64,000 bases of DNA from Lysobacterales bacterium (GCA_022844165.1 JALHMH010000006.1:20167-84166), one strand, 5' to 3'; positions 18,285 through 64,000 are shown, counted from the first letter of the stretch. A program made the numbers and translations. Notes: generated by a model from the sequence alone, not told the origin.

Positions 18285-18358
18285 GGTTAGCGACGCGGGG
18301 TCAACTTCTTCGCAGCGAACGGCGCTATCGTTCGCTGCTACGATTGCCGCAGGAACAT

Positions 18359-42727: not shown

Positions 42728-43227
42728 GCGGCTTGCCGACGGCGCTTGTCGAGCTTGCGCTGCACCATTTGCCGTTTCAGTGGCGACAAATAGTCGACGA
42801 ACACCTTACCGGCCAGATGGTCCATTTCGTGTTGGATACAAACCGCGAGCAAACCCGATGCTGCGATGCGCTGCGGCTGGCCGTGGCGATCCAGGCATTC
42901 GACGACGATGTGATCGGCGCGATCGACGTCGGCAAAAATGCCGGGCACCGACAGGCAGCCCTCCTGATAGGTTTGCACGCCCTCGCGTTCGACGATTTTC
43001 GGGTTGATGACCACCAGCGGCTGGTCTTTGTTCTCGCTGACGTCCATGACGATCAGCTGGCGATGATCATCGACTTGTGTGGCTGCCAGGCCAATGCCTG
43101 GCGCGGCGTACATGGTTTCGAACATGTCGTCGATGCGCGTTTGCAGGGCGGCATCGAATTCCGCGATGGGTTTGGCGACCGTACGCAAACGTTCGTCGGG
43201 AAACTCGAGAATCGTTAGAAGGGCCAT
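42724..43227 (-). CDS. def: peptide deformylase
   Basis: [27 protein letters not shown] 43227 gives [15 protein letters not shown]. Confidence 0.93.
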
Positions 43228-43334
43228 AGCGTTGGACTCCAGTTGCTGCCGCACAGCTTGGGGCGATTGGGTAGAAGTTTCAAGGCCCGGCCGAGTTCGT
43301 GGTCGGATTTGCGTCGGGTACAGAGAGATCTGCC

Positions 43335-44717: not shown

Positions 44718-45063
44718 GAGTCCAGGCCGGAGCGCTTCGAGGGGCGCGATTCTAATGGGAACGCGCTGCTTCCTGCTCGGCGATCGAGCATCCGCCTGGC
44801 TCGCCCACTTCATGGCATCGCGAGGATATGGCCTGAGTTCATAGTAGCGGTGCGTCGTTTCTCGACTGACCGGACTTCGCGACGAACGCGATGAACGCGC
44901 GGGCAAGGCGTTCCGAGGGAAGCGCATTGAGGAGGGCGCTGCTCCTGCGGCGCTCGCATGTTCCATATGCTGCCAGCGGCGGCGCAGGAGCGGCGCCCTC
45001 CCGCGGATGGTCTCCAATACGTCGATGTTTCTCCGGGCTGGCCGTCGCTCGAGACCGCGAGGG

Positions 45064-45555
45064 CTAATCCGGCAGATACAGGCCCAAAAAGCTGATGGAC
45101 CACTGCTGGCCATCGTCCGAAACCTCCCATTTCTGCTGCACCTTCCCCTCCGCCTGCGGCGTCCAGGTGATCCGTTGTCGCTGCACACCGCCGTTTGCTG
45201 CGGCCAACTCACCTTCCATCAACATCACGCCATCGATCAGTTTGCCTTCCAGGCTCAACACCACGCCGTCGCCGCCCACCCAGAACTGTCGCCAAACCCG
45301 GTGATTAGCGTCCCAGGCGTTGAGACTCATACCGTTCATTCCGCCTGCGCCGGACCAATACTCGACGACTCGGCAACCGTCTTTGCTGCGTTCGATTCGA
45401 TTCTTGCCCTGGAACTGATCGCCGTTGCGCCCGCCCATCACGCGCCAGTTGCCCAGCCAGAAGTCGAACTGTCGATGCTCTGCGCCAGAGCAGGGTGTCG
45501 CAGCGGCTGCTTCAGATGCAGCCAGGATCAAGAGAACAAATAACAATAAGTGCAT
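45064..45555 (-). CDS. hypothetical secreted protein (163 aa)
   Basis: Signal peptide MHLLLFVLLILAASEAAAA. No family recognised. Confidence 0.5.
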   Translation of the reverse strand: MHLLLFVLLILAASEAAAATPCSGAEHRQFDFWLGNWRVMGGRNGDQFQGKNRIERSKDGCRVVEYWSGAGGMNGMSLNAWDANHRVWRQFWVGGDGVVLSLEGKLIDGVMLMEGELAAANGGVQRQRITWTPQAEGKVQQKWEVSDDGQQWSISFLGLYLPD

Positions 45556-45590
45556 TGCGAATACTCCATTGTGCAACTGCAGTAAGGAAA

Positions 45591-47564: not shown

Positions 47565-47696
47565 TGTTGCACTCCTGGTGTTAGGAGTTCTTAGTCAAAG
47601 CGCACGCAATGCTGTCCGTCAGGATGTTGTTCCGAAGTTTCGACGAAGCTTTGACGAAAACGCGATGAATCAAGCCGCAGCAGCGTACAAGAGAGG

Positions 47697-49868: not shown

Positions 49869-49886
49869 ATTTGTCTCGTGCTTCGG

Positions 49887-51410
49887 CTAACCAACCCGCA
49901 AGCGCAGCCGCAAGCCGAGTTCGTCGAAGGTGTTTTTTTCCTGCCGAAGGTCGGTCCAGGTCAACGGATGCTTGGTCAGCCAGCCGCGCGGGAATTTGAG
50001 GTCGAAGTCGCGGCCGAGGATGTTGACGGTCAGCGGTGGCAGGGCTTCTTCGCTGCGTGCACGGTGCAGGACCACGGCGAGTCGGAAAATCGCCAAGGTC
50101 TTTTGAAAACGGTCGAGATCACGTTCGGCGATGTCTTCGAAGGTGTGATCGGGAATTCCGCGGCGATGGCCGAGCACCAGCGCCGCGACGGTTGCTTGTT
50201 CTTGCCGGGAGAAGCCCGGCAAATCCGAATGTTCGATAATGTACGCGCCATGTTTGTGGTGTTGCGTATGCGAGATCGACAGGCCGATCTCATGCACCAG
50301 CGTGGCGTACAACAAGGTGTCGCGCTCTTCCTGCATCAGACCCCAGCCGGCGGCCGCCTGGTCGAACAGATTGAGCGCCGTGGCCTGCACGCGCAGCGCC
50401 TGCGCCTGATCCACGGCATAGCGTTTTGCCAGCGTGCGGATGCTGCGTTCGCGCGGATCCTGCTGTTGCTGGCGGCCGAGCGAATCGTACAACAAACCCT
50501 CGCGCATTGCGTAGTCGCTGACGCGTAACAGATCCAGATCGAGCGCCTCATAACACGCCCAAAGCGCCGCCAGACCGCCGAGGAAAATCGGTCGGCGGTC
50601 TTCGCTCAGCGACGGCAAACGTGCGCGCTGCACAACGCCCACTTCGATGACGCGATCAATCAAATCCAGCAATCCGGCGCGCGTCACTTCGCGCTCGCGG
50701 CCACCCATCGCATGCAGAATGCTGCTCAGCGACTTGACGGTTCCAGAGCTGCCGATGACACGTTTCCAGCCGCGCGCTTTGTACGCGGCCAGTATCGGCT
50801 GAAATTCGATGGACAGCCGCAACTGCGCATCTTGCCAACGTTTGCGCGTGACTTTGCCGTCGGCAAAAAAGCGCTGCGAGGTGGCTACGCAGCCGAGCTG
50901 CAGACTCTCGGTTTCCAGTGTGTCGAAGCCGCGGCCGATGATCAGTTCGGTACTGCCGCCGCCGACATCGATCACCAACTGCTGTTGGCGCGGATCGTTC
51001 AGTCCGTGCGCGACGCCCAGGTAAATCAGCCGCGCCTCTTCGCGACCGGAGACCACCTCGATGGGTGCGCCCAGCGCGGTTTCCGCGGTCATCAGGAAGG
51101 CGCGCGGCGATTTCAGCTGGCGCACCGAGTTGGTCGCCACAGCGCGAATGCGCTCCCGCGGCACATTGCTCAGGCGTTGCCCAAAGCGCGATAAACAGGC
51201 GATCGCCCGCTCGCGGACGTCCGGGTTCAGTTGCCCATCTGCGGTGAGCCCAGCGGCCATGCGGACCGAATCGCGCAGGCGGTCGACGACCTGCAGCTCA
51301 CCTTCGGAAAAACGGGCGACGATCATATGGAAACTGTTCGACCCAAGATCGACCGCGGCCAGCGGCGTACTATCGACGATGTCTTTAGGGTCGAACGGCA
51401 TTTCTATCAT
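49887..51410 (-). CDS. ppx: exopolyphosphatase (Ppx/GppA family)
   Basis: AAVDLGSNSFHM, DVGGGSTE. The ATG overlaps the ppk stop (ATGA). Confidence 0.9.
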   Translation of the reverse strand: MIEMPFDPKDIVDSTPLAAVDLGSNSFHMIVARFSEGELQVVDRLRDSVRMAAGLTADGQLNPDVRERAIACLSRFGQRLSNVPRERIRAVATNSVRQLKSPRAFLMTAETALGAPIEVVSGREEARLIYLGVAHGLNDPRQQQLVIDVGGGSTELIIGRGFDTLETESLQLGCVATSQRFFADGKVTRKRWQDAQLRLSIEFQPILAAYKARGWKRVIGSSGTVKSLSSILHAMGGREREVTRAGLLDLIDRVIEVGVVQRARLPSLSEDRRPIFLGGLAALWACYEALDLDLLRVSDYAMREGLLYDSLGRQQQQDPRERSIRTLAKRYAVDQAQALRVQATALNLFDQAAAGWGLMQEERDTLLYATLVHEIGLSISHTQHHKHGAYIIEHSDLPGFSRQEQATVAALVLGHRRGIPDHTFEDIAERDLDRFQKTLAIFRLAVVLHRARSEEALPPLTVNILGRDFDLKFPRGWLTKHPLTWTDLRQEKNTFDELGLRLRLRVG

Positions 51411-53458
51411 CCTGCAATGCGCGCCAGCAGCGCGCTCTGCGCCGCGTGCGGCATGTCGTCGCCCGCTTCGACGCGCACGTAACTGCCGTCGCTCTGCAGG
51501 CGCCACGCCTGCGTGTTGTCGGCCAGGTAGTTCTCCAGAGTCTCGTTGAAGACACGCTGTCGCAGGCTCGAATCGAGAATCGGAAAGCAGGTCTCGACGC
51601 GGTTCAACAGATTGCGTTCCATCCAATCGGCGCTGGACGCATACAGCTCTTCGCGACCGTTGTTGTAGAAATAACAGACGCGGGAATGTTCGAGAAAACG
51701 GCCGACGATGGAATACACGCGGATGTTGTCGCTGACACCCGGCACGCCCGGCCGCAGCACACAAATCCCGCGTACGAACAACACCACTTCGACGCCAGCT
51801 TCGCTGGCACGATAGAGCGCGTCGATGACCTGCGGTTCGCTCAACGCGTTCATGCGCGCCAGGATTTTTCCGCCCTTACCGGCGCGCGCGTTCTTGGCCT
51901 CGCGGTCGATCTTGTGGATCAGCTGTTTGTGCAGCGTAAACGGCGAATGCAGCACTTGTTTGAGCTTGATCGCCTGACTCAAGCCTGACAACTGCTGGAA
52001 CAGCTTGTGCACATCTTCGCCGATGTCGGTATCGGCCGTGATCAGACCGATATCGGTGTAAACGCTGCTGGTGCCCTGGTGATAGTTGCCGGTTCCCAAA
52101 TGCACGTAGCGCCTGAGCTTGCCGTTTTCGCGGCGCACGATGAGCAGCATCTTGGCGTGCGTCTTGTAACCGACCACGCCATAGACCACCTGCACGCCGG
52201 CCTCCTGCAGCCGATTGGCCAGATCGATGTTCGCCTCTTCATCGAAGCGAGCGCGCAGCTCAACGATGACGGTGACATCCTTGCCGGCGCGGGCGGCTTC
52301 TATCAAGTAGTCGACCAGCACCGATTTGCGACCGGTGCGATACAGTGTTTGTTTGATCGCCAACACATCGGGATCGTGCGCGGCGGTTTTCAGCAAATCG
52401 ACGACGGTCGAAAAACTGTCGAAAGGATGGTGCAACAACACATCCTGCTCGCGCACCATATCGAACACATTGCCGACCTTCGGCGCCTGAATCCGCGGCT
52501 TGAACGCCTGGTACTTCAAATCCGGTCGGTCGACCAGGTCGTACACCGCGCCGACGCGGTTCAAATTGACAGGCCCATTGACGCGGAACATATCGTCTTC
52601 GCTGAGTTCGAAGTGTTCCAACAGATACTGGCCCAGCGCGCGCGGGCAACTGTCGGTAATTTCCAGGCGCACCGCGCGTGCGAAGCCGCGATCGAGTAGC
52701 TCGTCGCGCAGCGCGTGCGCCAGATTTTCCACATCGAATTCGTCGACCCACAACTCACTGTTGCGCGTGACCCGAAACGGGTAGACCCCTTTGACCTTCA
52801 TGCCAGGGAACAGATCGTCGACGAAGTCCTGCAAGATGGTGCTCAGCAGCACGACATCGTGCGTGCCGTTGGAAATTTCTTTCGGCAGCCGCACCAGGCG
52901 CGGCAACGAGCGCGGCGCACGCACCAGCGCCAGATCCGCTTCGCGACCGAAGGCGTCTTTGCCCTTCAGCGCCACCGCCACATTCAAACTCTTGTTCAAG
53001 ATCCGTGGGAACGGGTGCGCAGGGTCCAGACCCAGCGGGCTCAACACTGGCATCAGCTCGTCGTTGAAATAACCCTGCAACCAGCGCCGCTGCTTCGCAT
53101 TCCACTCGTCGCGCATCAAAAAATTGATGCCCTGCGCGGAGAGTTTGGGTTTGAGTTCCTGATTCCAGGTTTGGTACTGCTCGCGCACCAGGCTCAACGC
53201 TTCGGTGCGAATCGCCGCCAACACATCAGCAGCAGTGCGTCCGTCCGGCCACGGTTTGCTCGCCAGAAAGTTCACCTGGTGGCGAATCGATGCCACCCGG
53301 ACCTCGTAGAACTCATCGAGATTGGTGCACGAAATGCACATGAAGCGCAGGCGCTCAAGCAGCGGCACACGATCATCCTGTGCCTGGGCAAGCACGCGCC
53401 GATGGAATGCGAGCAAACTGGTTTCGCGGTTGAGAAATAGGCTGGGATCGCGACTCAC
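51407..53458 (-). CDS. ppk: polyphosphate kinase 1
   Basis: 683 aa. LNRETSLLAFHRRVL N-terminus and two PLD-like HKD-type segments (KTHAKMLLIVR). Confidence 0.93.
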   Translation of the reverse strand: MSRDPSLFLNRETSLLAFHRRVLAQAQDDRVPLLERLRFMCISCTNLDEFYEVRVASIRHQVNFLASKPWPDGRTAADVLAAIRTEALSLVREQYQTWNQELKPKLSAQGINFLMRDEWNAKQRRWLQGYFNDELMPVLSPLGLDPAHPFPRILNKSLNVAVALKGKDAFGREADLALVRAPRSLPRLVRLPKEISNGTHDVVLLSTILQDFVDDLFPGMKVKGVYPFRVTRNSELWVDEFDVENLAHALRDELLDRGFARAVRLEITDSCPRALGQYLLEHFELSEDDMFRVNGPVNLNRVGAVYDLVDRPDLKYQAFKPRIQAPKVGNVFDMVREQDVLLHHPFDSFSTVVDLLKTAAHDPDVLAIKQTLYRTGRKSVLVDYLIEAARAGKDVTVIVELRARFDEEANIDLANRLQEAGVQVVYGVVGYKTHAKMLLIVRRENGKLRRYVHLGTGNYHQGTSSVYTDIGLITADTDIGEDVHKLFQQLSGLSQAIKLKQVLHSPFTLHKQLIHKIDREAKNARAGKGGKILARMNALSEPQVIDALYRASEAGVEVVLFVRGICVLRPGVPGVSDNIRVYSIVGRFLEHSRVCYFYNNGREELYASSADWMERNLLNRVETCFPILDSSLRQRVFNETLENYLADNTQAWRLQSDGSYVRVEAGDDMPHAAQSALLARIAG

Positions 53459-53561
53459 GGCTCAATCAGGCAAGCGAAAACGCTAAAGGTAGCAGAAGCG
53501 TGTGACCAGCGGGCGTCAATCGGAGATTCCAAAGGACTGTTGCGGCGCCTGGCATTGGCCG

Positions 53562-54959
53562 CTACTGATTGCCTCCCACCGCCCGCGCCAACGCTGCATA
53601 CCATTCTTGTGCGCGTTCCGGCTCCACCATCGACGCGTAGGCGACCCAGCCGCGCAGGTAAGACTGAAAATTGGGGTGTCCAGCGCGATTTTGTGCATCG
53701 AGGCCGGTTCGGGCGGCGTTATGCAGCATGGCGCGCAGGCGGCGTTTGTCGTCGCGCTTCAGGCCAACGGCGGTGTTGACCACGAGCCCGGTGACCTCCT
53801 GGCGTTGCGCCTGACCCATCACGTGGGTTTTGTCGGGATGTTCGGTGAATCCTTCGGCGTGCAATATCCGTCGCACCGCGCCCAGTAGCGGCCCCAGCAG
53901 GCTGCGATCGGGGCCGGAGAAACTGAGATCGTCGGCATACCGTGTGTAAACGAATCCAGCGCGACGGGCGAGGCCCGCGAGCCGCGCATCGAGGCGTTTG
54001 CAGATCAGATTGGTCAGCAACGGACTGGTGCACGCGCCTTGTGGCAACTGGCGCTCGCCGATGGCGATATGGAACCGGCGCTTGAGTGGATCGCCGGCGA
54101 TGGCGCCCGCAATCCGCGGCGGTTCCGTGGTCAGCAGCGCCAACAATGTGGCCACCGCTCCGGAATAACCGAACGCGCGAAACAAGCCGCGCACCCGGGT
54201 GAAGCGCACGCTGGGGAAAAAATCCTTCAGATCGAGATTCACGAGCAGCGCGCGCCCCACGTGGTTCTGCGCGTTGCTCAGGGTCGATCGGCCAGCGACA
54301 AAACCATGCGCCTGGGCGCTGGTCCCCAGCGGTGCGAGCATCGCCAGAATCCAGCGTTGGCAGGCATCGAGTGCCGGCTTCGGCGCTGAGATGGCGCGAA
54401 CACCGCCGGTCTTCTTCGGAACCTCATAGCGGTGGTAATGCACCAGCGTGGCGCCGCGTCGGTGGTAGGTCAACCAGCGCAGTTTGCCGATGCTGATGCC
54501 GAGCGCAGCAGCGAGATCGCTGGCGCTGTGCAATACCGGCAGACCGGCACGCGTGAGTTTCTGCGCATCGCTCTGCGCATCGTTCAGCTGATCGCTGACG
54601 CCGCTTCCGGCGTGCACAATGGTAGCGAGCTTGTGGGCTTGCCAGGCATCGCGCCTGGCGCGGCGATCGGCGTCGGCTTGCGCCTTGCGTAACGCGCGGC
54701 GCTTCTTGCTCTCTTCCCAGCGTCGCGCGCGTTCGGCTTTGAGCGCGGCCTGCACATCGTCGACAGTGAGCGCACTCCTGCCGATGCGCGCCAGCTCGGC
54801 TTCGATTTGTTTGCGTTCCGCGGCTTCGTCTGGCGGATCGGGCGGCAGGCCATCGGCGATCGGCCAATAACCGAGCGCCTTCATCCGCTGCAGCACGATT
54901 TGATCGTCGAGCCGCGCGAGGCGTTTGTACAAATACTGCAGGTGCTCCTGTTCGCTCAT
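53562..54959 (-). CDS. retron-type reverse transcriptase with ~140-aa charged N-terminal extension
   Basis: RT motifs PKKTGGVRAISAP, NLDLKDFFPS, LPQGACTSP, YADDLSFS. Retron-associated signatures NAQNH (NAxxH) and RQEVTGLVVN (VTG). A structured ncRNA lies immediately upstream. Confidence 0.85.
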   Translation of the reverse strand: MSEQEHLQYLYKRLARLDDQIVLQRMKALGYWPIADGLPPDPPDEAAERKQIEAELARIGRSALTVDDVQAALKAERARRWEESKKRRALRKAQADADRRARRDAWQAHKLATIVHAGSGVSDQLNDAQSDAQKLTRAGLPVLHSASDLAAALGISIGKLRWLTYHRRGATLVHYHRYEVPKKTGGVRAISAPKPALDACQRWILAMLAPLGTSAQAHGFVAGRSTLSNAQNHVGRALLVNLDLKDFFPSVRFTRVRGLFRAFGYSGAVATLLALLTTEPPRIAGAIAGDPLKRRFHIAIGERQLPQGACTSPLLTNLICKRLDARLAGLARRAGFVYTRYADDLSFSGPDRSLLGPLLGAVRRILHAEGFTEHPDKTHVMGQAQRQEVTGLVVNTAVGLKRDDKRRLRAMLHNAARTGLDAQNRAGHPNFQSYLRGWVAYASMVEPERAQEWYAALARAVGGNQ

Positions 54960-54979
54960 GGCGCACGCCCCAACCAGAG

Positions 54980-55214
54980 CGAGCGTGGCGCGGCAGCATC
55001 TTCCGACGAAGCTTGCGACGGGACCGGTCCACTAATGCGGATCGCACCCAGCCGACCAGCCCGCGGCGACCGCAGGTCGCATACCAGCAGCGGGCGCGGC
55101 TGGGTGCGATCCGAGAGTGCCGAACGGGCCCGTGAAGAAAAAGCCACAGACCAGCATGCGCGGCGTAACGCCGCACGGGTTGCGAAGACGAACAGCTCGT
55201 CCGCGCCACGCTCG
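54980..55214 (-). ncRNA. candidate retron msr-msd non-coding RNA
   Basis: A perfect 14-nt inverted repeat brackets the region (cgagcgtggcgcgg at 54980-54993, ccgcgccacgctcg at 55201-55214). An internal 74-nt hairpin (55039-55112) has a perfect 16-bp basal stem (ggatcgcacccagccg / cggctgggtgcgatcc) plus inner 6-bp and 5-bp stems. Two small hairpins lie in the 5-prime part on the minus strand (GACGA-GCTGT-TCGTC and GCGGCG-TTA-CGCCGC). The region ends 20 nt upstream of the RT ATG. Exact msr/msd ends are unknown. Confidence 0.7.
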
Positions 55215-55250
55215 ATTCTTTCTACGTCAGCCAATCTCAAGATGCAAGCC

Positions 55251-56954
55251 TCAGCCATGTTGCGCGTCCTCCTGGCCGAGCCGTTGCATATGCACCAAAC
55301 GCAAACCAAGCACATGCGGGCATGGCCCTTTGGTCAAGCCGTCGCGCAACATCTGTGCACAGGTACACGAGGCGCTCAAGATCTCGCCGCTATGGCTGAT
55401 ATGCAACTGCGGCCTGACGCGGCTGCTGCCATCGGCCGCATTGCCGGAGAGTTTGTAGCCGTCATCGACCGGACGCCGCGCGATGATCACCACGTCGCCG
55501 GCGGCGGCGATGGCTTGGGCCGCTTTGGCTTTGGGTTGGCTGGCTTCGTGTTTTTTCGCCGCCGTCAGCGCTTGTGCCGCATCGAAGGCCTGCAAGGTCA
55601 GGTCGCGGTGGCGCACGCACTCACTGCCAAGATCGATCATCGCGCGCCCGGCTTGCGCCAACAGGCTCAGCGCACTGCGGGTTTTTTCGATGCCGAATCC
55701 CAGACTCGACGCCAGTTCCGGCGTGCGCGCCCAGCGTTGCCCACGCAGCGTGGTGTACACCCGATCGAGTTCCGGCGCGGTGACTGCCAATCGCTGCGTC
55801 AACAGGTCGAATCGCCCTTCGCCCTCGACCCAGTCGTTGTCGGTCCACCCGGACAACGCCAGCGTGAACTCGATACCACATGGCAGCGCGCACACCCAGA
55901 CGCTCGGCAGACCGCTGGCCGACAGGTACACATCCACGTGTCGCGCAACGGGCAACACGCGCAACAGGCTGCGCAATCGCTCGCGCCCCCAGACGCGAAT
56001 CGTCGCGATTTTGTCGCCGCCGTACACACTGGATGGCGAGCACCAGATCGAGCGATTCCAAGGCTCCAGCACCAGCCGCACCGGTTCGCCGGGGCGCAGC
56101 TCGAAACGCAGCGCGCGTGGACTCTCGCGGGTTTTGTGTGTCAGCAAAAAGTTCAGCGCGTTGAGCACGTCGACCGGTTGCAAGCGCAGCCGGATCAAAC
56201 CCATCGACATCAATCCGTGTACCCGCAAAAAACCTTCGAGCCAACCTTCGGGCAGGTCGATACGTTTTTCCAGCGCGGTGGCATCACCGGCTTTGGGTTC
56301 GAGGCGTTCGGAAGCGAAACCGCCGGCGCCGATATCGAAGCGCGTCGCGCGATAACTGCGCAGGCGATCGAAGTGATCGGCGAGCCGCGCGCTGAAATCG
56401 ATGTTGGTAGTTCCATATTCGATCGCTTCGATGCGCTCGAACGCAGCCAGCGGCAGCGCGAGTCGACCATAACTCGACTGGTCGCGCGAAAACGCCTCGA
56501 ACGAGAGTTGATCCGGGTGCACAGTGATCACCGGGTCCAGCACCCGATTCAGTTCAACATCGCTGCTGACGGCGTATTGCATCCAGCGCTGGCGCGCAGC
56601 GTCGAAGGGTAGTCGGCGCGCCGCGCGGGCGGCGTCGAGTTCGATCAGACGCGCGTTCAATTCCGCCATCCGCGACTTCGCCGCGAGCGACTTGCTGCCC
56701 AGACTGGCGACGAATGCCTGGTCCTGGCGCTCCAGCCACGCGCGGTAAGCAAGACGCGCCTTGGGACGATATTTGTAGTCGCCAACCACCACCGAATACA
56801 GCGCAGCGAAGCTCTCGCGCGCCAGCAGCGGCTGCGCCAGCGTGCCGCGGAAAAAGGTCGCCTCGCGCAACTGGTTGGTCGCCAATGCCAGCCGCGCGTC
56901 AGCGCCGTGCATCTCGACGCCGCTGCGGCCCGAGTAGCGGTATTCGATGCTCAT
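55251..56954 (-). CDS. winged-helix + SWIM zinc-finger protein
   Basis: C-terminal SWIM signature CTCAQMLRDGLTKGPCPHVLGL (CxC..CxH) preceded by a WH-like segment (TPELASSLGFGIEKTRSALSLLAQAGRAMIDL). 4-nt overlap with the upstream ARM/HEAT gene. Confidence 0.8.
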   Translation of the reverse strand: MSIEYRYSGRSGVEMHGADARLALATNQLREATFFRGTLAQPLLARESFAALYSVVVGDYKYRPKARLAYRAWLERQDQAFVASLGSKSLAAKSRMAELNARLIELDAARAARRLPFDAARQRWMQYAVSSDVELNRVLDPVITVHPDQLSFEAFSRDQSSYGRLALPLAAFERIEAIEYGTTNIDFSARLADHFDRLRSYRATRFDIGAGGFASERLEPKAGDATALEKRIDLPEGWLEGFLRVHGLMSMGLIRLRLQPVDVLNALNFLLTHKTRESPRALRFELRPGEPVRLVLEPWNRSIWCSPSSVYGGDKIATIRVWGRERLRSLLRVLPVARHVDVYLSASGLPSVWVCALPCGIEFTLALSGWTDNDWVEGEGRFDLLTQRLAVTAPELDRVYTTLRGQRWARTPELASSLGFGIEKTRSALSLLAQAGRAMIDLGSECVRHRDLTLQAFDAAQALTAAKKHEASQPKAKAAQAIAAAGDVVIIARRPVDDGYKLSGNAADGSSRVRPQLHISHSGEILSASCTCAQMLRDGLTKGPCPHVLGLRLVHMQRLGQEDAQHG

Positions 56955-59431
56955 GCCACCGCCTCGAACGCACTGCTGAGCGTCGGAAACAGCAGTCTCA
57001 AGCGCGTCAAAGTGACGGCGATTGCCTCAAAGTCGCGTTGATTCGCGGTGCGCAATGCGGCATCCAGGATATCGATGGCGATGCGCGCCTGGCTTTCATC
57101 GCTGGCGCCGCGATCGGCGACGATGGCGAACAAACGGTCTTTGGCCGATCGCGCCAGGCGCGGCGTCAACAGGCTGGATCGCAAAAACGGCGCCAGGCGA
57201 CTGAACGCATCTGTGCCCTGCGGCCAGTGCGCGTCGAGGAGTCCGAGCGCCAGTTGGCGCATCGCCACGTGCGGGTGTTCGATGAGCCGCTGCAATAGCT
57301 GCGGTGCATCAAGATCGGACAGTCGTGCAATCACGATGCGCGTGGCGAAGGCTTGCACATCGCTGCGATTGGAATCGCACAAAGCGACCAGCGCATCGAG
57401 CGATAGCGCGGTCGCGTCGAGCCGTTGCAACAACGCAAAAGCGTGCGCGCCGTTGTCGCTGAATCGCGACTCGGCGAGTTGGATCAGCGGCCAGGGATCG
57501 ATCTGCAGCTGCGGTAAAGCGCGTTCGAGCAAAATCGCTGCCGCGCCGCGCACGCTTTGCACTTCATCTTCTGCAAGCATCGCCAGGCGCGCACTGCCGA
57601 GCAGCGTCAACGATTGTGGGTGGGCGGCGAGCAGCGCGCCACCCAGCGTGCGCTGGGTCAGCGTACCATCCTGCACCAGCGCCAGAACCTGCAGCAGCGG
57701 CAGCGTTGCCGCGGCTACGTCGGCGTAGGCGGTCAGTACCGTCAGCAGCGCCTCGTCGCGTTCACTCGGCGCCTCGCGCATGGCGTGCAGCAGGCGCTCA
57801 AGCACTGTGATGCGCGGCGCATCGTCGAGCACGGCAAGCACCGCCTGGGTGAGCTGCGCGATCGCCTGCCGACCGGCATCGGTGCGCCGACGCATCAGCC
57901 GCGGCAGTTGCGCGTGCACGATCCACACCGACGCGCTGCGGCTCAAGAACGCCTGCGCCAAAGCACGCGCCAGATCGCCACCATCGAGTAGTGCCGCGAG
58001 CAGTTTCAGATCCGGCACCGTCGCGTCGAAGCGGCGCTCGGCCTCGGCGCGCGCACTGGCGGCAATCCGCGGCGTATCGATCAGCGCCGCAAGATCGGTG
58101 GGGCTGGCGGTTGCAATCGCCTCCGGGTGGCGCATCAGTCCGTCGATACCGAACGCGCGGACCTCATCGAGCCCACCGGTGGCCAGGCTCACGAACGCTG
58201 CCGGCTTGGCATCGAAGCGATCGACGAAGGGCACGTCGGCGAGCAGCCAGGGTGTTTTGACCGCTGCCGTGTCGCGATAACACACGCGGCTCATCGCATC
58301 GACGCGTTGGCGTTTGCCTTTGCCGTGCAACAAGCGATGCAGCATCAACGCGTACACAAAAGGCGACTGCAAGGCACGCGGCGCGCGCGCATCGTCGGCG
58401 CCATAACGCCGCAGCACGGCCGCGGCGGCAAGTGGGTACAAATCGCGCCGCCAGTACGCCAGAAGGCGCAGCCAGCGCGCGCTGGCGCGACACACGTAGG
58501 CCTGCGTTTTGGCGCCGAACACCAGCGTCGATCGCGATTGCCCATCCAAGCCGCTCTTCAGCGACTGGCGCGCGCCGGCGGTGCGTGCGCGACGCCGCTC
58601 GAAGGCCAACGCCAACTCGGCAAACGTCTCAAGATCGGCGCGCAGCATCGCGCGTTTCCAAATGCTCTTGGTGTACCGCCAACGATGCGGCGCATCCCAA
58701 TCCGCCGTCGTGCGGCGCACCGCTGCGACGCACAGCGGCGTGCCGAATTCGTAGAGTTGATCGAGCACCAGGCCGCGCCGCGGCGCATCGATGCCATCGA
58801 TCGCAGCGCACAGCGCATCGACAGCGGCCTGCGCAGTCGATTGTTCGTCCAGGCCAATCAATGTTGCGCGCAACGTATCCGGCAAACGCTGCAATCCTTC
58901 GGCGCGTGCTGTCGCCAAACCCTCCGCATCGCCCAGCGCGCGCAATGCCTCGACACCCGAGCGGCGGCGCGACAGCAGCTTCTTCGCCGCCTGCTCGCGT
59001 AGTAGCGCTATGGCGCGTGTGTCGCCGATGCGTCCCAGAGCATCGACGATCACCCCGATCTCCGGCGGGTTCTTCGCCGCCAATCCGAGCAGCGCCGGAA
59101 CCGCATCCACGGCTTGCCGCCATCCCAGCGCCGTCGCCGCCAGCGCCCGTGGCTTTTGATGCAGCGATGAAAGTCGCTCGATCAGCGGCTCATGCCCACC
59201 GACTTCGGCGTAACCCGCGATCCGCAGGCGCTCGAGCACATGCTGCATCCGCGCTTGCGTTTCGGTCTGCGCGAAGGGCCCATACACGGTGCCGCCGGTC
59301 AACTGCTGCCGCGAAGGACCGGTCGCCAGGCGCAAAAGAATCTGCCCCGGCGCACTCGCGGCCTCGATCGACAGCAGCGTGTATCGCGAATGCGCTGCGG
59401 CATGCGGACTCTTGAGCAGGATCGGCGACAT
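56951..59431 (-). CDS. large alpha-helical ARM/HEAT-repeat protein with possible N-terminal WGR-like domain
   Basis: 826 aa, Leu/Ala-rich helical repeats. HEAT-like units (AVPALLGLAAKNPPEIGVIVDALGRIGDTRAIALLRE). The N-terminal ~70 aa has a beta-rich pattern ending in LERLRIAGY, reminiscent of WGR/MolR-type N-domains (tentative). Confidence 0.65.
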   Translation of the reverse strand: MSPILLKSPHAAAHSRYTLLSIEAASAPGQILLRLATGPSRQQLTGGTVYGPFAQTETQARMQHVLERLRIAGYAEVGGHEPLIERLSSLHQKPRALAATALGWRQAVDAVPALLGLAAKNPPEIGVIVDALGRIGDTRAIALLREQAAKKLLSRRRSGVEALRALGDAEGLATARAEGLQRLPDTLRATLIGLDEQSTAQAAVDALCAAIDGIDAPRRGLVLDQLYEFGTPLCVAAVRRTTADWDAPHRWRYTKSIWKRAMLRADLETFAELALAFERRRARTAGARQSLKSGLDGQSRSTLVFGAKTQAYVCRASARWLRLLAYWRRDLYPLAAAAVLRRYGADDARAPRALQSPFVYALMLHRLLHGKGKRQRVDAMSRVCYRDTAAVKTPWLLADVPFVDRFDAKPAAFVSLATGGLDEVRAFGIDGLMRHPEAIATASPTDLAALIDTPRIAASARAEAERRFDATVPDLKLLAALLDGGDLARALAQAFLSRSASVWIVHAQLPRLMRRRTDAGRQAIAQLTQAVLAVLDDAPRITVLERLLHAMREAPSERDEALLTVLTAYADVAAATLPLLQVLALVQDGTLTQRTLGGALLAAHPQSLTLLGSARLAMLAEDEVQSVRGAAAILLERALPQLQIDPWPLIQLAESRFSDNGAHAFALLQRLDATALSLDALVALCDSNRSDVQAFATRIVIARLSDLDAPQLLQRLIEHPHVAMRQLALGLLDAHWPQGTDAFSRLAPFLRSSLLTPRLARSAKDRLFAIVADRGASDESQARIAIDILDAALRTANQRDFEAIAVTLTRLRLLFPTLSSAFEAVA

Positions 59432-59441
59432 GTGCTGAGGT

Positions 59442-60152
59442 TTACTCGAACTCGCTGTCGTCGAAGTCCTCGAGGGCGCCCGCCAGAGTGGGTTTCGACG
59501 GCGTCACGCCCATGCTTTCCAGCGCTGGCGCAGCTTGCTTGCGAAAACCGCTGGCCGGTGTCAACGGGCCGAGAATGCCCTCAAGCGCCATGCGCATCTG
59601 CTGGAAGTCGCGAAACGCGTGTTCGCGGAACAGATCGTACGCCGTCCACATCAGATCGGCGCAGATTTCGGCAGGCACGCGACCCGTTTGCGCGCCCAGG
59701 CCGGGCAACGCCACGGAGCGAATCGAACCGGGTTCTTCGGTGTTCTGGATATGCACCGCCTGGAACGCTGCCGCGCACGCCAGCGCCACGTTCATGCTGG
59801 CACTGATGTCTTGATTGGACGACACCATCGTTGGCGTCGAAATCAGAAACCTGGGCTGCACGCGTTCCGTGGGCACGCACACGGCATGACCGACCGGCAT
59901 CGCACCTTGATGCTTGCGCTTGATTTCGCCTTTCACCTGATGCTCGATCTTCGCGCCCAGAAAATTCTTGATGACCAGATCGAGCCCGCCATCCATGCTG
60001 CCGGCCGAATTCGTCGGCGATACCCAGGCGCTGACCGGTTGATCGAGCATCGAACCATGCACGATCTCGACTTCTGGGTTGCCCTCAAAACTGGCGCGCC
60101 ACGCGGCGATGATCTTCGGATTAATGTCGACGAGGAGAACTTTGACGAGCAT
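59442..60152 (-). CDS. macro-domain protein (putative ADP-ribose binding/hydrolase)
   Basis: VSPTNSAGSMDGGLD (N..G.GGG-type diphosphate loop variant) and SVALPGLGAQTG (second macro loop). Only 10 nt from the ARM/HEAT gene start. Confidence 0.75.
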   Translation of the reverse strand: MLVKVLLVDINPKIIAAWRASFEGNPEVEIVHGSMLDQPVSAWVSPTNSAGSMDGGLDLVIKNFLGAKIEHQVKGEIKRKHQGAMPVGHAVCVPTERVQPRFLISTPTMVSSNQDISASMNVALACAAAFQAVHIQNTEEPGSIRSVALPGLGAQTGRVPAEICADLMWTAYDLFREHAFRDFQQMRMALEGILGPLTPASGFRKQAAPALESMGVTPSKPTLAGALEDFDDSEFE

Positions 60153-60222
60153 GGGTTTTCCAGTGATTGAACGAGCAGTCGATGTCGAGCGTTGGAAGGT
60201 CTTCGGCCGGACGCGGAGCTAC

Positions 60223-61653
60223 CTAAATCGTAAACTCAACCAAATACTCCAGGCGCTGTTGATTCGGCGAGTACACCACATACTCGTCGTCGGCGAATTG
60301 CGATGGCGAGAGCAGTTTGTGACGCACGCCGTGGCATGAATCGTAGCCCGGCGGTGGGCTTTCGAGCCCATACGTGATCTTCGTGTACGGCGCCATCTTG
60401 CCCAGCGCGACGCGCGCCAGCGCCATGAAACGCGTGCCTTTTTTGCCGGGCGTGGTGTAAAAGGCGCTGGTGCAGGCGGCGTCGCCGAAGTAGATGCCAT
60501 GGCCAAGCCATCCGGCGTCGGTGCGATTGACGCCCATACCGACCACAATCTTCGGCATCAAAATGCCGCGCGACAACAAGCCCACCCAGTTGCGAATCCG
60601 CGAGCCGTGGAACAACAACCGCTGGTTGTCGATATGCGTGGTGAACCCATCCCACTCGCCTTTGCGCTTGAGCGTGTAGATGGCTTTGACTTTGATGTTC
60701 TTGCTCTTGATCTGCGACTTCAGCACGTAGCGTTCGATTTCGTCGTAGGCACTGCCTTGACCCAAAGTGGCGACTTCGCAGTGAAGCGCCTGATATTTGG
60801 CATCGATCTCGTCCTCGAACAAGACACTGCCGGCCTCGCCGTTGACTTGCAGCATGTCTTTCATCAGCTGCAAGGTTTCTTGCTTCTGCTCGAATTCGGC
60901 GGGGGTGTCGATGACCGCTTCGGCGATCGCCTCGCGGGTGCGACCGATACGATGCGGAATGCAGGTGTAGAACTCGCCCGACAGTGCCTCGATTTTGTCT
61001 TGCAGTTTGCCGTTGGCCTTTTTGCTCGACTCGAAGATCTTGAACAGCTCGGCCAGGATCGCCTCGCCTTTTTCGATCTGCCCGAGCGTCAAAACGCCGA
61101 GCGGCGTTTCGATGCCGTTGGCCGTGATCTTGGCCGCAACGGTGTTGACCAGTGCGGTCGTGGCCTCATCGTAGATGTAGCGAATCAGCGCCTGGATATC
61201 ACCCGTCAGCGACGACGGTGGGCGCGCCGCGCGCTTCTCTTTTTCGCCCTCGATACGCTCCAGCGTCTTGGCGTCGATCTGCCCACTGGAGGCGCCGCGC
61301 GCCTTATGCGAACCGATTTTGCTCGAGGCCAGCGAAACTTCTTTGTAGCCTTTGCTGGCCCCGGTTTTTTCCCGGTAGATCTGCTGGTAACAGACTTCTC
61401 CCTCGGCGCGCGTCGCGAAGTGTCGCGTCTCACGAGCACCCGCACCGGGATTGGTTTCCAGATCATCGGTACGACCGTAATGCGTGAAGACGCGAAACTT
61501 GCCGCCGCCTTCATGCAATTCGATCGCGTAGTACTTGTTGTGATTGCTCTTGATATCGGTGACCTGCAGCACCGCCTTTTGCAGCACTTCGAAATCTTCC
61601 GGAAAGCTCGGCTCGTCGCTGGCGCCGAATTTGTAGGCTTTGGGTTTGGCCAT
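60223..61653 (-). CDS. WGR + helical regulatory domain + PARP catalytic domain protein (eukaryote-like PARP)
   Basis: WGR segment NHNKYYAIELHEGGGKFRVFTHYGRTD. HD segment LSGEFYTCIPHRIG (compare PARP1 LSNRFYTLIPHDFG). Catalytic H-Y-E residues lie in LFHGSR, GIYFGD and DDEYVVY. Confidence 0.88.
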   Translation of the reverse strand: MAKPKAYKFGASDEPSFPEDFEVLQKAVLQVTDIKSNHNKYYAIELHEGGGKFRVFTHYGRTDDLETNPGAGARETRHFATRAEGEVCYQQIYREKTGASKGYKEVSLASSKIGSHKARGASSGQIDAKTLERIEGEKEKRAARPPSSLTGDIQALIRYIYDEATTALVNTVAAKITANGIETPLGVLTLGQIEKGEAILAELFKIFESSKKANGKLQDKIEALSGEFYTCIPHRIGRTREAIAEAVIDTPAEFEQKQETLQLMKDMLQVNGEAGSVLFEDEIDAKYQALHCEVATLGQGSAYDEIERYVLKSQIKSKNIKVKAIYTLKRKGEWDGFTTHIDNQRLLFHGSRIRNWVGLLSRGILMPKIVVGMGVNRTDAGWLGHGIYFGDAACTSAFYTTPGKKGTRFMALARVALGKMAPYTKITYGLESPPPGYDSCHGVRHKLLSPSQFADDEYVVYSPNQQRLEYLVEFTI

Positions 61654-61693
61654 GTGCGTGAAAAAGCGGGCGAAGGCGGCAGACTACCTGTCT

Positions 61694-62710
61694 TCACACA
61701 CGCATTGCCAGCGCACGCAAGTCATCCGATCGTTCAACGTCGCGCACCCAGTGCGCGGGCAGGGCATCGATGCCCAAACGTGCCCCCACCAGGGCACCGG
61801 CCAGCGTCGCCAGCGAATCGCTGTCGCCGGGCGAATTGGCGCCCGCCAGGATCGCACCCGGCGCATCGTCTTTGTACCGCGCGAACAGGTACACCGCAGC
61901 AGCAATCGCCTCGTGCGCCGCCCAACCGCGCAGGCGATCGAGCGTCACCACCGGTTCCACGCCGTCGCGCGCTTCGTCGAAAGCGCGCTGCATCATGACA
62001 GCGGTTGGCGGCGAATAACGCGCCGCCGCCGAGATCATGGATTCAATCGCACGTTCCGCCGGCCAATCGTGCAACACCCGCGCAACGCCGACAGCCATCG
62101 CCGCGCTCGCTGCCAGCGCAATCGGATCGCGATGCGTCAGCTTCGAATGCGCCACCGCCCAGTCCTCGGCGCGCTGCACATCGTCCCGATACAACAGTCC
62201 GAACGGATAGGCGCGCATCACCGAACCGCAGCCACCCGCTGCCTCTCCGCCGGCCAGCTGCCAGGGCGTGCCACTGGCCAACGCGCGGCAACCGGCCATA
62301 CACGCGTTTCCTGGCGCACGATGACCGCCCTGCGGCGCCTGCGCCCAGGCCACAAATGCGCGGCTCATGCGGCGCATCGCGGCATCCAGATCTTCGTCGG
62401 CATTGCGGCTATCGAGCAGGCTCGCCAACACCGCTTCGGCCATTTGGGTGTCGTCGGTGTACGGCGCGAAACGCTGTCCACCACGCTCCCAATAAAGCTC
62501 GAAGCCGCGCACACCGTCCGATCCGTAACGCAACTCGATCTGACTCATCGACATAAACTCGGTGGGATGACCCATCGCATCGCCAATCGCCGCCCCAAGC
62601 ACGCATCCGACGACCGCTCGCTGCATCGGCCGAATCGGCGCCGCCGGCGGCGATCCGCTCACCACGGGCCACTGCAACTGCAATTGCGCGATCAGCTCAT
62701 CTGACGCCAT
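61694..62710 (-). CDS. ADP-ribosylglycohydrolase (ARH/DraG family)
   Basis: GAAIGDAMGHPTEF, YTDDTQM and GDSDSLATLAGALVGA metal-binding motifs. Confidence 0.88.
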   Translation of the reverse strand: MASDELIAQLQLQWPVVSGSPPAAPIRPMQRAVVGCVLGAAIGDAMGHPTEFMSMSQIELRYGSDGVRGFELYWERGGQRFAPYTDDTQMAEAVLASLLDSRNADEDLDAAMRRMSRAFVAWAQAPQGGHRAPGNACMAGCRALASGTPWQLAGGEAAGGCGSVMRAYPFGLLYRDDVQRAEDWAVAHSKLTHRDPIALAASAAMAVGVARVLHDWPAERAIESMISAAARYSPPTAVMMQRAFDEARDGVEPVVTLDRLRGWAAHEAIAAAVYLFARYKDDAPGAILAGANSPGDSDSLATLAGALVGARLGIDALPAHWVRDVERSDDLRALAMRV

Positions 62711-62775
62711 TTAGAAGGGCTCCGGTTCACTTCAAGAAAGTCTAGCTGACGACCAGACCGCAGCACATTGAACTT

Positions 62776-64000
62776 TCAGGCTGCGCCATGCAGCGACTCG
62801 CACATGGAATTGTCGAGATCCGCAAGAAATTCCGAAGCCGGTCGAACACTGGTCACCAACAAGCGCTCTCGGGCACGTGTGCTGGCGACATACAACAAGT
62901 GTCGCTCAGTGGCATAGACATTCGCCAAATCGGCCTCATCGCTGATGGCCTCGATGCGGGATTGCAGCGGAACGATCTCATCATCGCAAGCCATCACGGC
63001 AACAGCGCGGAACTCCAGACCCTTCGCCAGGTGCATCGCACCGATCGAGATAGCACCCACTGACGTATCGGCATGCTCGTCAAGTAGCTTGAATTGCAAC
63101 CCTGCCGTTGTGGCAGCGGCTTTAGCACGCTCAAGTTGCTCGAAGGAACGAACGAAAAGCGCTATTTCATGGAGCGAAATTAGCTCTCCAGCGCGTGCAC
63201 ATAGCCACTGCGCAACATGCGCTATCTCCTGGGCTTCGCTATCGAAGCACCGAATGATTGGCGCGGGCCCGTTAAACACCGAGATAGTGCCGCGGCGGCT
63301 ATCGGTATTGCCGTCGACATCGGAAATTTCCTCGTCAAGCAGACGATCGGCCTGGATTCGAATTTGGTGGGACGTGCGGTAATTCACCTTCAGCGTACGC
63401 GAGCGACCGCGCACATCGACACCCAGTGTGGCCCAAGAAAAAGGCGTCTGGAAGATCCGCTGCCCCAAATCGCCGGCGAAGAACAGCCCATTCGCGTGAT
63501 CGCCCGATAAGGCCGCAAGGAAGCGCAACTGCGCGACGCTAATGTCCTGCGCCTCGTCGATTACCGCATGCTGATAAGGTCGATTCGCTTGCTGCTGTTC
63601 GGCAAGCCGGTGGAACATTGCCGCCCGCGTCATCAACTGAGCCGTTTCAAGCGCTTGCCAGACGCGCTCGAACACCTGCCACAACGCGGCACGCTGCGCC
63701 TCGTTGAGCCGCGTCTTGCGTCCCAAACGCTTGACGTCGCGATAGGCTTCCCAAGTGCGCAACTGCCAGGCGTCGACGATCTCCTGCCACTCCTGGCGCA
63801 CGAACGCGACATTGAATCGAAGATTCTCGCCGCGCGTCGCGCCTGCGAGCATTTGCGCAACGTCTGCGTCGCTCGCCAAAGAGCCGCGCTTGCCGAAGAG
63901 CCGCTCGCCGAGAGCGTCCATAGCGTACACATCGATGCGCTCGCCGAGCCTGGGCTGAGCTTTGATGAGCTTGCGCAAACGATTGTGCAGCGCGTTGGCG
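62776..64000 (-). CDS. UvrD/Rep-like superfamily 1 helicase, N-terminus beyond window
   Basis: VIDEAQDIS (motif II), FFAGDLGQRIF, NYRTSHQI, HLAKGLEF and YVASTRARERL (motif VI). The reading frame stays open to the window edge. Confidence 0.8.
   Translation of the reverse strand, partial: ANALHNRLRKLIKAQPRLGERIDVYAMDALGERLFGKRGSLASDADVAQMLAGATRGENLRFNVAFVRQEWQEIVDAWQLRTWEAYRDVKRLGRKTRLNEAQRAALWQVFERVWQALETAQLMTRAAMFHRLAEQQQANRPYQHAVIDEAQDISVAQLRFLAALSGDHANGLFFAGDLGQRIFQTPFSWATLGVDVRGRSRTLKVNYRTSHQIRIQADRLLDEEISDVDGNTDSRRGTISVFNGPAPIIRCFDSEAQEIAHVAQWLCARAGELISLHEIALFVRSFEQLERAKAAATTAGLQFKLLDEHADTSVGAISIGAMHLAKGLEFRAVAVMACDDEIVPLQSRIEAISDEADLANVYATERHLLYVASTRARERLLVTSVRPASEFLADLDNSMCESLHGAA

Follow-up and report, generated by a model that had tools for sequence, protein, structure and literature searches.

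By gene order and homology, three ADP-ribosylation genes of a Lysobacterales bacterium (GCA_022844165.1) open a conserved operon whose remaining genes make up a type XIII retron. They lie in a 64,000-nt stretch of DNA, referred to here as the window, and encode an ARH-family ADP-ribosylglycohydrolase (ARH), a PARP-type ADP-ribosyltransferase (PARP), and a macro-domain protein (Macro). We hold with moderate confidence that they constitute the ADP-ribosylation arm of a larger (ARH)-PARP-Macro-HEAT-SWIM-msr/msd-RT operon, whose mechanism we infer from its parts. In the literature that was searched, PARPs and macro domains were not connected with retrons in any paper.

Layout of the operon and its retron half

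An earlier note on this DNA had assigned the ARH (61694-62710, 338 aa), PARP (60223-61653, 476 aa), and Macro (59442-60152, 236 aa) genes to one strand, and all three were found there as intact ORFs on the minus strand, with Pfam E-values of 3.7e-60, 8.2e-30, and 4.4e-12, respectively. It had also read the trio as a writer bracketed by two erasers. The PARP-Macro pair and the recurrence of ARH genes near the cassette support that view in part, but the functional unit appears to be larger, with the three genes at the 5′ end of a retron operon that runs on the minus strand from 62710 down to 53562 in the order (ARH)-PARP-Macro-HEAT-SWIM-ncRNA-RT. ARH and PARP are separated by 40 nt, PARP and Macro by 70 nt, and the Macro stop and HEAT start by 10 nt; the HEAT stop codon overlaps the SWIM gene by 4 nt. 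The locus is flanked by the housekeeping genes ppk, ppx, ffh, fmt, and rsmB, with GC3 equal in both. Because a scan for consensus promoters and terminators returned no more sites than were present in shuffled sequences, it was uninformative about the operon boundaries. A UvrD-like gene was rejected as a member of the system: it has 0 homologs in 90 related loci and a lower GC3, and it runs off the end of the window.

The HEAT/ARM-repeat protein (56951-59431, minus strand, 826 aa) matches the PADLOC models WGR_XIII (2e-69, profile positions 118-638 only) and HEAT-ARM_XIII (1.5e-43) as well as Pfam HEAT_2, and the N-terminal WGR-like part of the WGR_XIII model is not recognizable in it. The idea of a WGR transfer from HEAT to the PARP found no support; Pfam detected no WGR in the HEAT N terminus, and hhalign found no similarity to the PARP WGR. 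The SWIM zinc-finger protein (55251-56954, minus strand, 567 aa) matches SWIM_XIII (5.3e-154), with its CxC...CxH residues C530, C532, C545, and H547 invariant. Its AF2 model (pLDDT 76) is clamp-like in fold: each of the best 50 Foldseek PDB matches listed is a PCNA sliding clamp, and the target-normalized TM-scores range over 0.63-0.79. The last gene encodes a retron reverse transcriptase (RT; 53562-54959, minus strand, 465 aa; PADLOC RT_XIII, 1.5e-150; Pfam RVT_1, 2.2e-19).

Between SWIM and RT lies a candidate retron ncRNA (msr-msd; 54980-55214, minus strand, 235 nt). Its ends form a 14-bp inverted repeat (a1, 55201-55214; a2, 54980-54993), and its predicted fold combines terminal a1/a2 pairing with a long internal hairpin. 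Inverted repeats 12 bp or longer, varying in sequence among loci, flank this region in 30 of 43 loci versus 0.35% of shuffles, and RNAalifold applied to 18 loci returned compensatory changes at 28 of 40 pairs. An Rfam search of 50000-64000 (E<=1) yielded no retron or other credible family, the sole matches, P10 sRNA and mir-1295, both falling well under their gathering scores.

The window holds the protein set that characterizes type XIII (clade-10 RT, SWIM, and HEAT/ARM) and an ncRNA of the expected kind, placed beside the RT with a1/a2 repeats and a structured msd. The locus, known here from its genes and a predicted ncRNA, is probably a type XIII retron bearing a PARP-Macro module. Like the described members of this type (Mx162, Mx65, Ne144, and Sa163; Mestre et al. 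2020, PMC7736814), it has RT, SWIM, and HEAT/ARM proteins that match the PADLOC models and a structured ncRNA with inverted repeats directly upstream of the RT; as with those retrons, its location is chromosomal and its composition matches that of its housekeeping neighbors. The published description comprises three proteins, without PARP, macro, or ARH, whereas in the window a co-oriented PARP-Macro pair lies directly upstream of HEAT, and the HEAT protein matches WGR_XIII from profile position 118 only.

The writer and its candidate erasers

By its domains and catalytic triad, the PARP should be a real ADP-ribose writer. Pfam places a WGR domain (2.5e-9; aa 26-106, ~nt 61336-61578) before a PARP_reg helical regulatory domain (HD; 8.9e-18; aa 147-268, ~nt 60850-61215) and a PARP catalytic/ART domain (aa 303-446, ~nt 60226-60747), which is the order of a PARP1-3-like architecture. 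H349, Y388, and E457 align with the H-Y-E triad positions of PARP4 and are invariant in 15 homologs. The closest solved structure is human PARP4 (1.8e-45), followed by PARP2 and PARP1 with their WGR included. Since PARP4 carries the triad, yet is named a mono-ADP-ribosyltransferase in the PDB, H-Y-E alone cannot separate poly- from mono-ADP-ribosylation. Homologs number 864 at E<=1e-10, the best 120 of the 864 all being at least 64% identical; PADLOC has no model matching the PARP or the ARH.

The earlier proposal of a writer-eraser pairing is supported insofar as PARP, the writer, and Macro are dedicated partners: their genes adjoin in 72 of 78 loci, and the proteins P0039 and P0073 are fusions of the two. 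In these fusions the PARP part is N-terminal and retains WGR, HD, and H-Y-E, and the macro part is C-terminal. The human macro-PARPs PARP9, PARP14, and PARP15 likewise hold macro and PARP catalytic domains in one protein, a likeness confined to the two rare fused forms, in which the domain order is reversed; most genomes hold two separate genes.

The Macro protein has a macro fold from aa 1 to ~196, followed by a disordered linker (AF2 model pLDDT 78). Pfam Macro PF01661 spans aa 44-168, with Macro_2 at 2.9e-5. Foldseek matches it best to yeast Ymx7 (1njr, 2.8e-10), which its PDB title names an ADP-ribose-1''-phosphatase, and next to the DarG macrodomains (E about 2e-6), at 20-23% identity to any solved macro domain among these matches. 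MacroD-type enzymes carry an N-x(6)-GG[VLI]-D motif with the catalytic Asn and Asp and a phosphate loop of the form G-[VIA]-[YF]-G. In the window protein, N48 and D54-G55-G56-L57-D58 are invariant across 30 homologs, at the spacing of the MacroD2 catalytic pair, N92/D102, and the second phosphate loop, GLGAxTG, is closer to that of DarG. The position of the DarG catalytic Lys, which follows the P-T motif, is held by Met109, within an invariant STPTM. We describe the protein as Ymx7/DarG-like; its candidate catalytic residues are conserved, and it is a likely eraser.

The acidic C-terminal tail of ~60 aa that the earlier note had ascribed to this protein proved shorter and of different make-up: ~40 aa (197-236), predicted to be disordered (pLDDT <50) and consisting of a variable, mostly non-acidic linker that ends in D-F-D-D (D229-D232; 59457-59468, minus strand). 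Each residue of this motif is kept in at least 90% of 30 homologs, and the motif is at times repeated 2-4 times. It occurs in 55 of 56 retron-linked loci, in 16 of 18 PARP-Macro-only loci, and in both PARP-Macro fusion proteins.

The ARH covers the full profile of PF03747 (ADP_ribosyl_GH), and its best solved relatives are MJ1187 (1t5j, 1.2e-21) and DraG, with which its metal-binding motifs align. Across 26 ARH genes of the cassette loci, D44, E51, T85-D86-D87-T88, H193, N292, D296, and D298 each reach at least 95% conservation, and the metal-binding acidic and Thr residues (D44, E51, T85, D86, D87, T88, D296, and D298) are among them; on alignment, both putative erasers keep their active-site residues. 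The protein scores under the NCBIfam cut-offs for both arginine-specific equivalogs, DraG (TIGR02662, 80 vs 337) and Tri1 (NF041672, 59 vs 490). It is a likely eraser, and by its distribution an optional accessory of the cassette, a facultative satellite as opposed to a fixed flank.

That erasers bracket the PARP is true of the window but is not the rule. ARH is missing in about half of the retron-linked loci, being found within 10 kb in 18 of 35 such loci versus 0 of 15 PARP-Macro-only loci (Fisher p=2.9e-4). Cassette-linked ARH genes belong to at least three ARH lineages and occupy four positions, including after the RT or divergent from the PARP; in one lineage the ARH is joined to an NAD-dependent DNA ligase in a single protein, and several loci have such a ligase, either as a neighbor or as part of a fusion. 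Orthologs of the window ARH (63-73% identity) take shifting positions around the cassette in other genomes. Close homologs are unlinked to the cassette in 13 of 22 informative metagenome loci, and no broadly conserved neighbors were found at those unlinked loci.

Conservation and probable loss of the PARP-retron linkage

Our census took in 80 species genomes from four phyla, of which 78 were usable for PARP/Macro and 74 for HEAT, with enough downstream DNA in 50. In all 72 loci with an adjacent pair, Macro directly follows PARP on the same strand, and HEAT follows Macro in 52 of 74. Among the 50 loci, 32 carry HEAT, SWIM, and RT, three more carry HEAT and SWIM, and 15 have PARP-Macro alone. 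The same gene order recurs between differing flanks in L001/L003, L004, L006 (Sandaracinus amylolyticus CP011125), L008, L010 (genome CP089983), and L091 (Tautonia plasticadhaerens CP036426). Macro and HEAT are separated by 8-13 nt in four of six contexts with called genes; in the remaining two the distance is 28-111 nt.

Retron-linked loci occur all over the PARP tree, and the PARP-Macro-only loci fall in nested clades, a pattern which suggests that the linkage is ancestral and was lost repeatedly. At L092/L093, a bona fide type XIII retron stands without the PARP-Macro pair; together with the PARP-Macro-only loci, it indicates that the two halves can work separately. PARP-Macro-only loci have no other conserved neighbor except an ORF of ~135 aa in five related loci.

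Alternative readings and a proposed mechanism

The separability of the two halves would also fit a self-contained, reversible ADP-ribosylation system, in which PARP writes, Macro and ARH erase, and the retron is a mere neighbor, much as in the PARP1-3 damage response or bacterial PARP-PARG. We consider this unlikely. PARP-Macro does persist with its DFDD tail where HEAT, SWIM, and RT are lacking, the retron exists without the pair, a NAD-dependent ligase accompanies several loci, and the surrounding genes are housekeeping; yet the PARP-Macro-HEAT-SWIM-RT order is fixed over four phyla between unrelated flanks, the Macro-HEAT gap is mostly short, the retron linkage extends over the whole PARP tree, and ARH genes occur near retron-linked copies only. 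Known bacterial PARP-PARG systems (Herpetosiphon aurantiacus, Clostridioides difficile CD160; PMC8120803, PMC5966428) share the WGR-(HD)-ART architecture, the H-Y-E triad, and an eraser in the genome. The window PARP, in contrast, stands in a retron operon, has a catalytic domain closest to human PARP4, and has as partners a DFDD-tailed, Ymx7/DarG-like macro protein and an optional ARH; no PARG-like (DUF2263) Pfam match was found among seven ORFs, those of the cassette and its upstream neighbor.

A toxin-antitoxin-like arrangement, with a toxic PARP held in check by two dedicated flanking erasers for different linkages, had been suggested by analogy with DarT-DarG, and we regard it as quite improbable. 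An ADP-ribosyltransferase beside a macro gene, a macro fold resembling the DarG macrodomains, active-site residues kept in both hydrolase families, and a non-orthologous ARH that lies upstream in L042 and L081, placed as in the window, all speak for it. The analogy is weak, however, as there is no DarT in the window, an invariant Met replaces the catalytic Lys, the antitoxin_DarG model of NCBIfam gives 16 bits against a cut-off of 250, and the ARH is often absent, variably placed, or unlinked. The writer is instead a multi-domain PARP with an autoinhibitory helical domain, and five loci (L038, L069, L083, L087, and L089) have a PARP with no adjacent macro gene, a mild argument against obligate toxicity; the PARP is thus not an obvious constitutive toxin. 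It is also conceivable, though doubtful, that Macro is an ADP-ribose reader or adaptor that recruits partners through its DFDD tail, with ARH, where present, as the sole eraser. The divergence of the macro domain from any solved one, a second loop unlike that of MacroD, and a conserved linker and terminal motif that resembles a docking device are consistent with such a role, whereas the invariance and MacroD2-like spacing of N48 and D58, the phosphatase named in the title of the nearest structure, and the many loci without an ARH gene inside 10 kb on each side favor an eraser.

If the genes are the ADP-ribosylation arm of a retron operon, as we favor, the RT would make msDNA from the ncRNA, and the HEAT and clamp-like SWIM proteins would hold it. 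The PARP WGR could then read a DNA end or structure, one that either belongs to the msDNA and reports its state or is part of foreign or broken DNA, and this reading would release the autoinhibition by the helical domain, as in PARP1-3. Those bacterial WGR-PARPs that have been assayed depend on DNA (PMC8120803). Once active, the PARP would spend NAD+ to ADP-ribosylate proteins and/or nucleic-acid termini; Macro, kept near by its DFDD tail, would remove or read the mark, and ARH, where present, would remove a second linkage type and reset the system. The whole may serve either defense or DNA repair. DNA ends are modified by PARP1-3, and macro and ARH enzymes reverse the modification in vitro (PMC8053099). 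The resemblance to eukaryotic PARP1/2/3 signaling with MacroD, TARG1, and ARH3 lies in the WGR, HD, and ART domains together with macro and ARH hydrolases, both eraser families undoing DNA-end ADP-ribosylation in vitro (PMC8053099); some relatives of the window add a NAD-dependent ligase, and all add a protein predicted to be PCNA-like. The window system differs in being prokaryotic, organized as an operon, and coupled to an RT and an ncRNA, and the PARP and operon lack zinc fingers, BRCT, and PARG.

Three features point to DNA-end chemistry: the PARP WGR, the fold of the clamp-like SWIM protein, and the fusion of ARH to a ligase. We tentatively propose that type XIII retrons might use the WGR-PARP as a sensing/effector enzyme, which would read msDNA or a DNA end held by HEAT and SWIM and ADP-ribosylate nucleic-acid termini, possibly those of the msDNA, or proteins; Macro and ARH would take off the mark, and in some lineages the ARH-fused NAD-dependent ligase would seal the end. 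Such a system would be a prokaryotic counterpart of eukaryotic PARP-PCNA-ligase break signaling, wired to a reverse transcriptase.

Mx162, a type XIII retron, was the first retron found, and we know of no function or effector assigned to the type. To our knowledge, only a handful of bacterial PARPs have been characterized biochemically, and none has an assigned biological role. A conserved PARP-retron link would give PARPs and type XIII retrons alike an experimental handle, and it predicts either PARP activity that requires retron products or ADP-ribosylation control over retron output. Cultured hosts of the PARP-to-RT cassette include Tautonia plasticadhaerens, without ARH, and Sandaracinus amylolyticus, with it. 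Eukaryotes use the PARP/macro/ARH toolkit in DNA-break signaling, and the link would also add to the partners known for it in prokaryotes.

A PARP gene set continuous with a type XIII retron

The earlier note described a PARP writer flanked by two erasers on the same strand. All three ORFs were recovered at the stated positions on the minus strand, with Pfam matches far beyond chance: ARH (61694-62710; 338 aa; ADP_ribosyl_GH, 3.7e-60, entire profile covered), PARP (60223-61653; 476 aa; WGR 2.5e-9, PARP_reg 8.9e-18, PARP catalytic 8.2e-30), and Macro (59442-60152; 236 aa; Macro 4.4e-12, with a weaker Macro_2 match). The same strand runs unbroken into genes for a HEAT-repeat protein (56951-59431, minus; 826 aa; PADLOC WGR_XIII 2e-69, HEAT-ARM_XIII 1.5e-43), a SWIM protein (55251-56954, minus; 567 aa; SWIM_XIII 5.3e-154), and a reverse transcriptase (RT; 53562-54959, minus; 465 aa; RT_XIII 1.5e-150), all three placed by PADLOC in retron type XIII. 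HEAT follows the Macro stop by 10 nt, HEAT and SWIM overlap by 4 nt, and 291 nt separate SWIM from RT. The proposed writer-plus-erasers logic holds in part: the unit was understated, as it continues into a retron, and the role of the flanking layout was overstated.

The SWIM–RT gap contains a sequence that is a strong candidate for the retron ncRNA. The candidate (54980-55214; 235 nt) contains a long internal hairpin and is bounded by a perfect 14-bp inverted repeat (55201-55214 and 54980-54993). Flanking inverted repeats of at least 12 bp were found in 30 of 43 nonredundant related loci, compared with 0.35% of dinucleotide shuffles; the repeat sequences themselves vary between loci. An RNAalifold consensus of 18 loci carried compensatory changes in 28 of 40 pairs, and Rfam held no family matching the candidate. 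The SWIM protein is predicted to adopt a PCNA-like clamp fold: the top 50 Foldseek PDB matches listed for its AF2 model (pLDDT 76) were all PCNA, with TM-scores, normalised to target, of 0.63-0.79.

Type XIII retrons have been described with RT, SWIM, and HEAT proteins only (Mestre et al. 2020, PMC7736814), whereas the window adds PARP-Macro and ARH. PARG is the partner reported for bacterial PARPs in two surveys and a review (PMC4245714, PMC5966428, PMC8120803), none of which mentions a retron, and our full-text literature search found no paper joining bacterial PARPs and retrons. Each part comes from a known family (PARP, macro, ARH, type XIII retron); what appears to be new is the PARP-Macro-retron combination.

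Conservation and setting of the cassette

The order PARP-Macro-HEAT-SWIM-RT recurs, with unrelated flanks, in gene-called contexts from two Xanthomonas-like metagenome contigs, Sandaracinus amylolyticus (CP011125), genome CP089983 (whose PARP is named Pendulispora rubella), and Tautonia plasticadhaerens (CP036426). A scan limited to one genome per species yielded 80 loci from Myxococcota, Planctomycetota, Pseudomonadota (Xanthomonas, Rhodanobacteraceae, Alcaligenaceae), and Acidobacteriota, which were then searched by tblastn with the window proteins. Macro lay immediately 3′ of PARP in 72 of 78 loci, and HEAT was present in 52 of 74. Where the downstream sequence extended for at least 8.2 kb (50 loci), 32 carried HEAT, SWIM, and RT, 3 carried HEAT and SWIM with no RT match, and 15 had none of the three. 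At L019, L022, and L056, where PARP-Macro-HEAT-SWIM is present, no RT was detected in the 4.5-5 kb after SWIM; it may have been lost, relocated, or become too divergent.

Retron-linked loci are scattered across the whole of a neighbour-joining PARP tree, whereas those with PARP-Macro only group into several nested clades, a pattern that fits an ancestral linkage repeatedly lost or separated. Conversely, L092/L093 is a clear type XIII retron that lacks PARP-Macro (HEAT-ARM_XIII 1.9e-119, RT_XIII 2.9e-160). Thus, PARP-Macro is a module, present on most retrons seen around the window's PARP family and not on every type XIII retron. Upstream of HEAT in L092 (5661-7207, plus strand), ORFs of 148 and 344 aa occupy the usual place of PARP-Macro; neither gave a credible Pfam match or any PADLOC match, and they could be an alternative module.

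Downstream of RT, the window carries ppk, ppx, ffh, fmt, and rsmB (41822-53458), whose products (polyphosphate kinase, Ppx/GppA, Ffh (SRP54), Fmt, and RsmB) are housekeeping proteins. Cassette GC3 (0.74-0.76) is that of these neighbours, and the cassette has apparently resided in the chromosome for a long time instead of arriving recently as an island; type XIII retrons likewise look vertically inherited (Mestre et al. 2020, PMC7736814). The cassette could serve either defence or repair. Upstream of ARH, a UvrD-like helicase gene is cut by the window end (62776-64000, minus). In PADLOC it matches GajB-like models best (about 2e-17), its GC3 of 0.68 compares with about 0.75 in its neighbours, and it adjoins the cassette in none of the other loci.

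The PARP writer and its candidate erasers

Inspection of the active sites, as the earlier note had proposed, indicated that the catalytic residues of PARP and ARH are kept and that the candidate residues of Macro are invariant. In PARP, H349, Y388, and E457 fall at the triad positions of solved PARPs and do not vary among 15 homologs. At E<=1e-10 there were 864 PARP homologs, and the best 120 of these were all at least 64% identical. For its helical and catalytic domains, human PARP4 (vault PARP) is a far better match, at 1.8e-45, than PARP2 (2.4e-27) or PARP1 (5e-22); an earlier survey found bacterial PARPs mostly PARP1-like (PMC4245714). Two homologs, P0039 (729 aa) and P0073 (753 aa), are natural one-chain PARP-Macro fusions that retain the DFDD tail of Macro, bacterial macro-PARPs with PARP N-terminal and macro C-terminal, the opposite of the domain order in human PARP9/14/15.

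The nearest solved relative of Macro is yeast Ymx7 (1njr; Foldseek 2.8e-10), titled ADP-ribose-1''-monophosphatase in the PDB, followed by DarG macrodomains (about 2e-6), both at 20-23% identity. Macro is nevertheless not a DarG, because the catalytic-lysine position of DarG is an invariant Met, within STPTM, in this macro family and Macro scores 16 with the DarG equivalog model, whose cut-off is 250. Neither N48 nor the DGGLD54-58 loop varies among 30 homologs. The ten-residue N48/D58 spacing, which is also that of the MacroD2 catalytic pair N92/D102, is compatible with a hydrolase without proving one.

The ~60-aa acidic tail ascribed to Macro proved shorter: the predicted disordered part is aa 197-236 (59445-59564, minus), a variable linker ending in a conserved D-F-D-D, and only the last ~10 residues are acidic. 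Some homologs carry two to four copies of the motif. Linker and tail occur at 55 of 56 retron-linked and 16 of 18 PARP-Macro-only loci, as well as in both fusions, so the tail goes with the PARP-Macro pair rather than with the retron half. Bacterial SSB has a disordered linker with an acidic tip, a layout that Macro resembles, and we read the tail as a putative docking motif.

In ARH, the residues D44, E51, TDDT85-88, H193, N292, D296, and D298 line up with motifs of DraG and MJ1187, its best solved relatives; across 26 ARH genes of related loci, each is conserved in at least 95%. The window ARH scores under the NCBIfam cut-offs for DraG and Tri1 and is best assigned to the ARH family without a finer class. 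An ARH gene lies within 10 kb in 18 of 35 retron-linked loci versus 0 of 15 PARP-Macro-only loci (p=2.9e-4); the link is real but loose. Orthologs (63-73% identity) sit divergently upstream of PARP, or after RT on either strand. A second lineage (38-40% identity) follows RT coupled to an NAD-dependent DNA ligase, at L050, L052, L070, L086, L010, and L014; in L010 the pair shares a 4-nt overlap, and in L050 a single 1058-aa ARH-ligase ORF lies directly 3′ of RT (18239-21415, plus), its ligase complete with adenylation, OB, HhH, and BRCT domains. LigA-like genes adjoin the cassette in 8 of the 80 species loci; the window has none. A third lineage (27% identity) is found in two Isosphaeraceae loci, directly upstream of PARP and co-oriented with it, reproducing the window's layout but with a non-orthologous ARH. 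Such repeated recruitment is an argument that the cassette benefits from ARH activity. Exclusivity is weakened by the reverse test: only 14 of 80 metagenome loci with close homologs of the window ARH were linked to RT or PARP, and of the 22 flanked on each side by at least 1.5 kb, 9 were linked and 13 were not.

Two further ARH arrangements were seen. At L108 (2664-3071) and L109 (8734-9141), a short same-strand ORF matching the PARP catalytic core alone (33% identity to aa 343-475) precedes a close homolog of the window ARH, by homology a further ART-plus-ARH pair outside the retron context. In Sandaracinus amylolyticus (L006:18184-19911, plus), the ARH after RT is called as 575 aa, with a DSP-phosphatase-like N-terminus (Pfam Tc-R-P, E=1.6e-6; 29 bits, barely over the 27-bit cut-off).

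A proposed mechanism

WGR-HD-ART enzymes are autoinhibited until WGR engages a DNA end. The bacterial WGR-PARP of Herpetosiphon aurantiacus requires DNA for activity (PMC8120803), and PARP1-3 can ADP-ribosylate DNA termini, a mark that macro and ARH enzymes reverse in vitro (PMC8053099). At the sequence level, the analysis establishes the gene set, its order and conservation, the conserved catalytic or candidate catalytic residues, and the covarying ncRNA; the ARH-ligase fusion and the predicted PCNA-like SWIM fold point to DNA-end chemistry. From knowledge of the families, we infer that PARP would read a DNA structure that the retron, damage, or invaders present or generate, and would write ADP-ribose, spending NAD+, and that the tethered Macro, plus ARH where present, would erase the mark.
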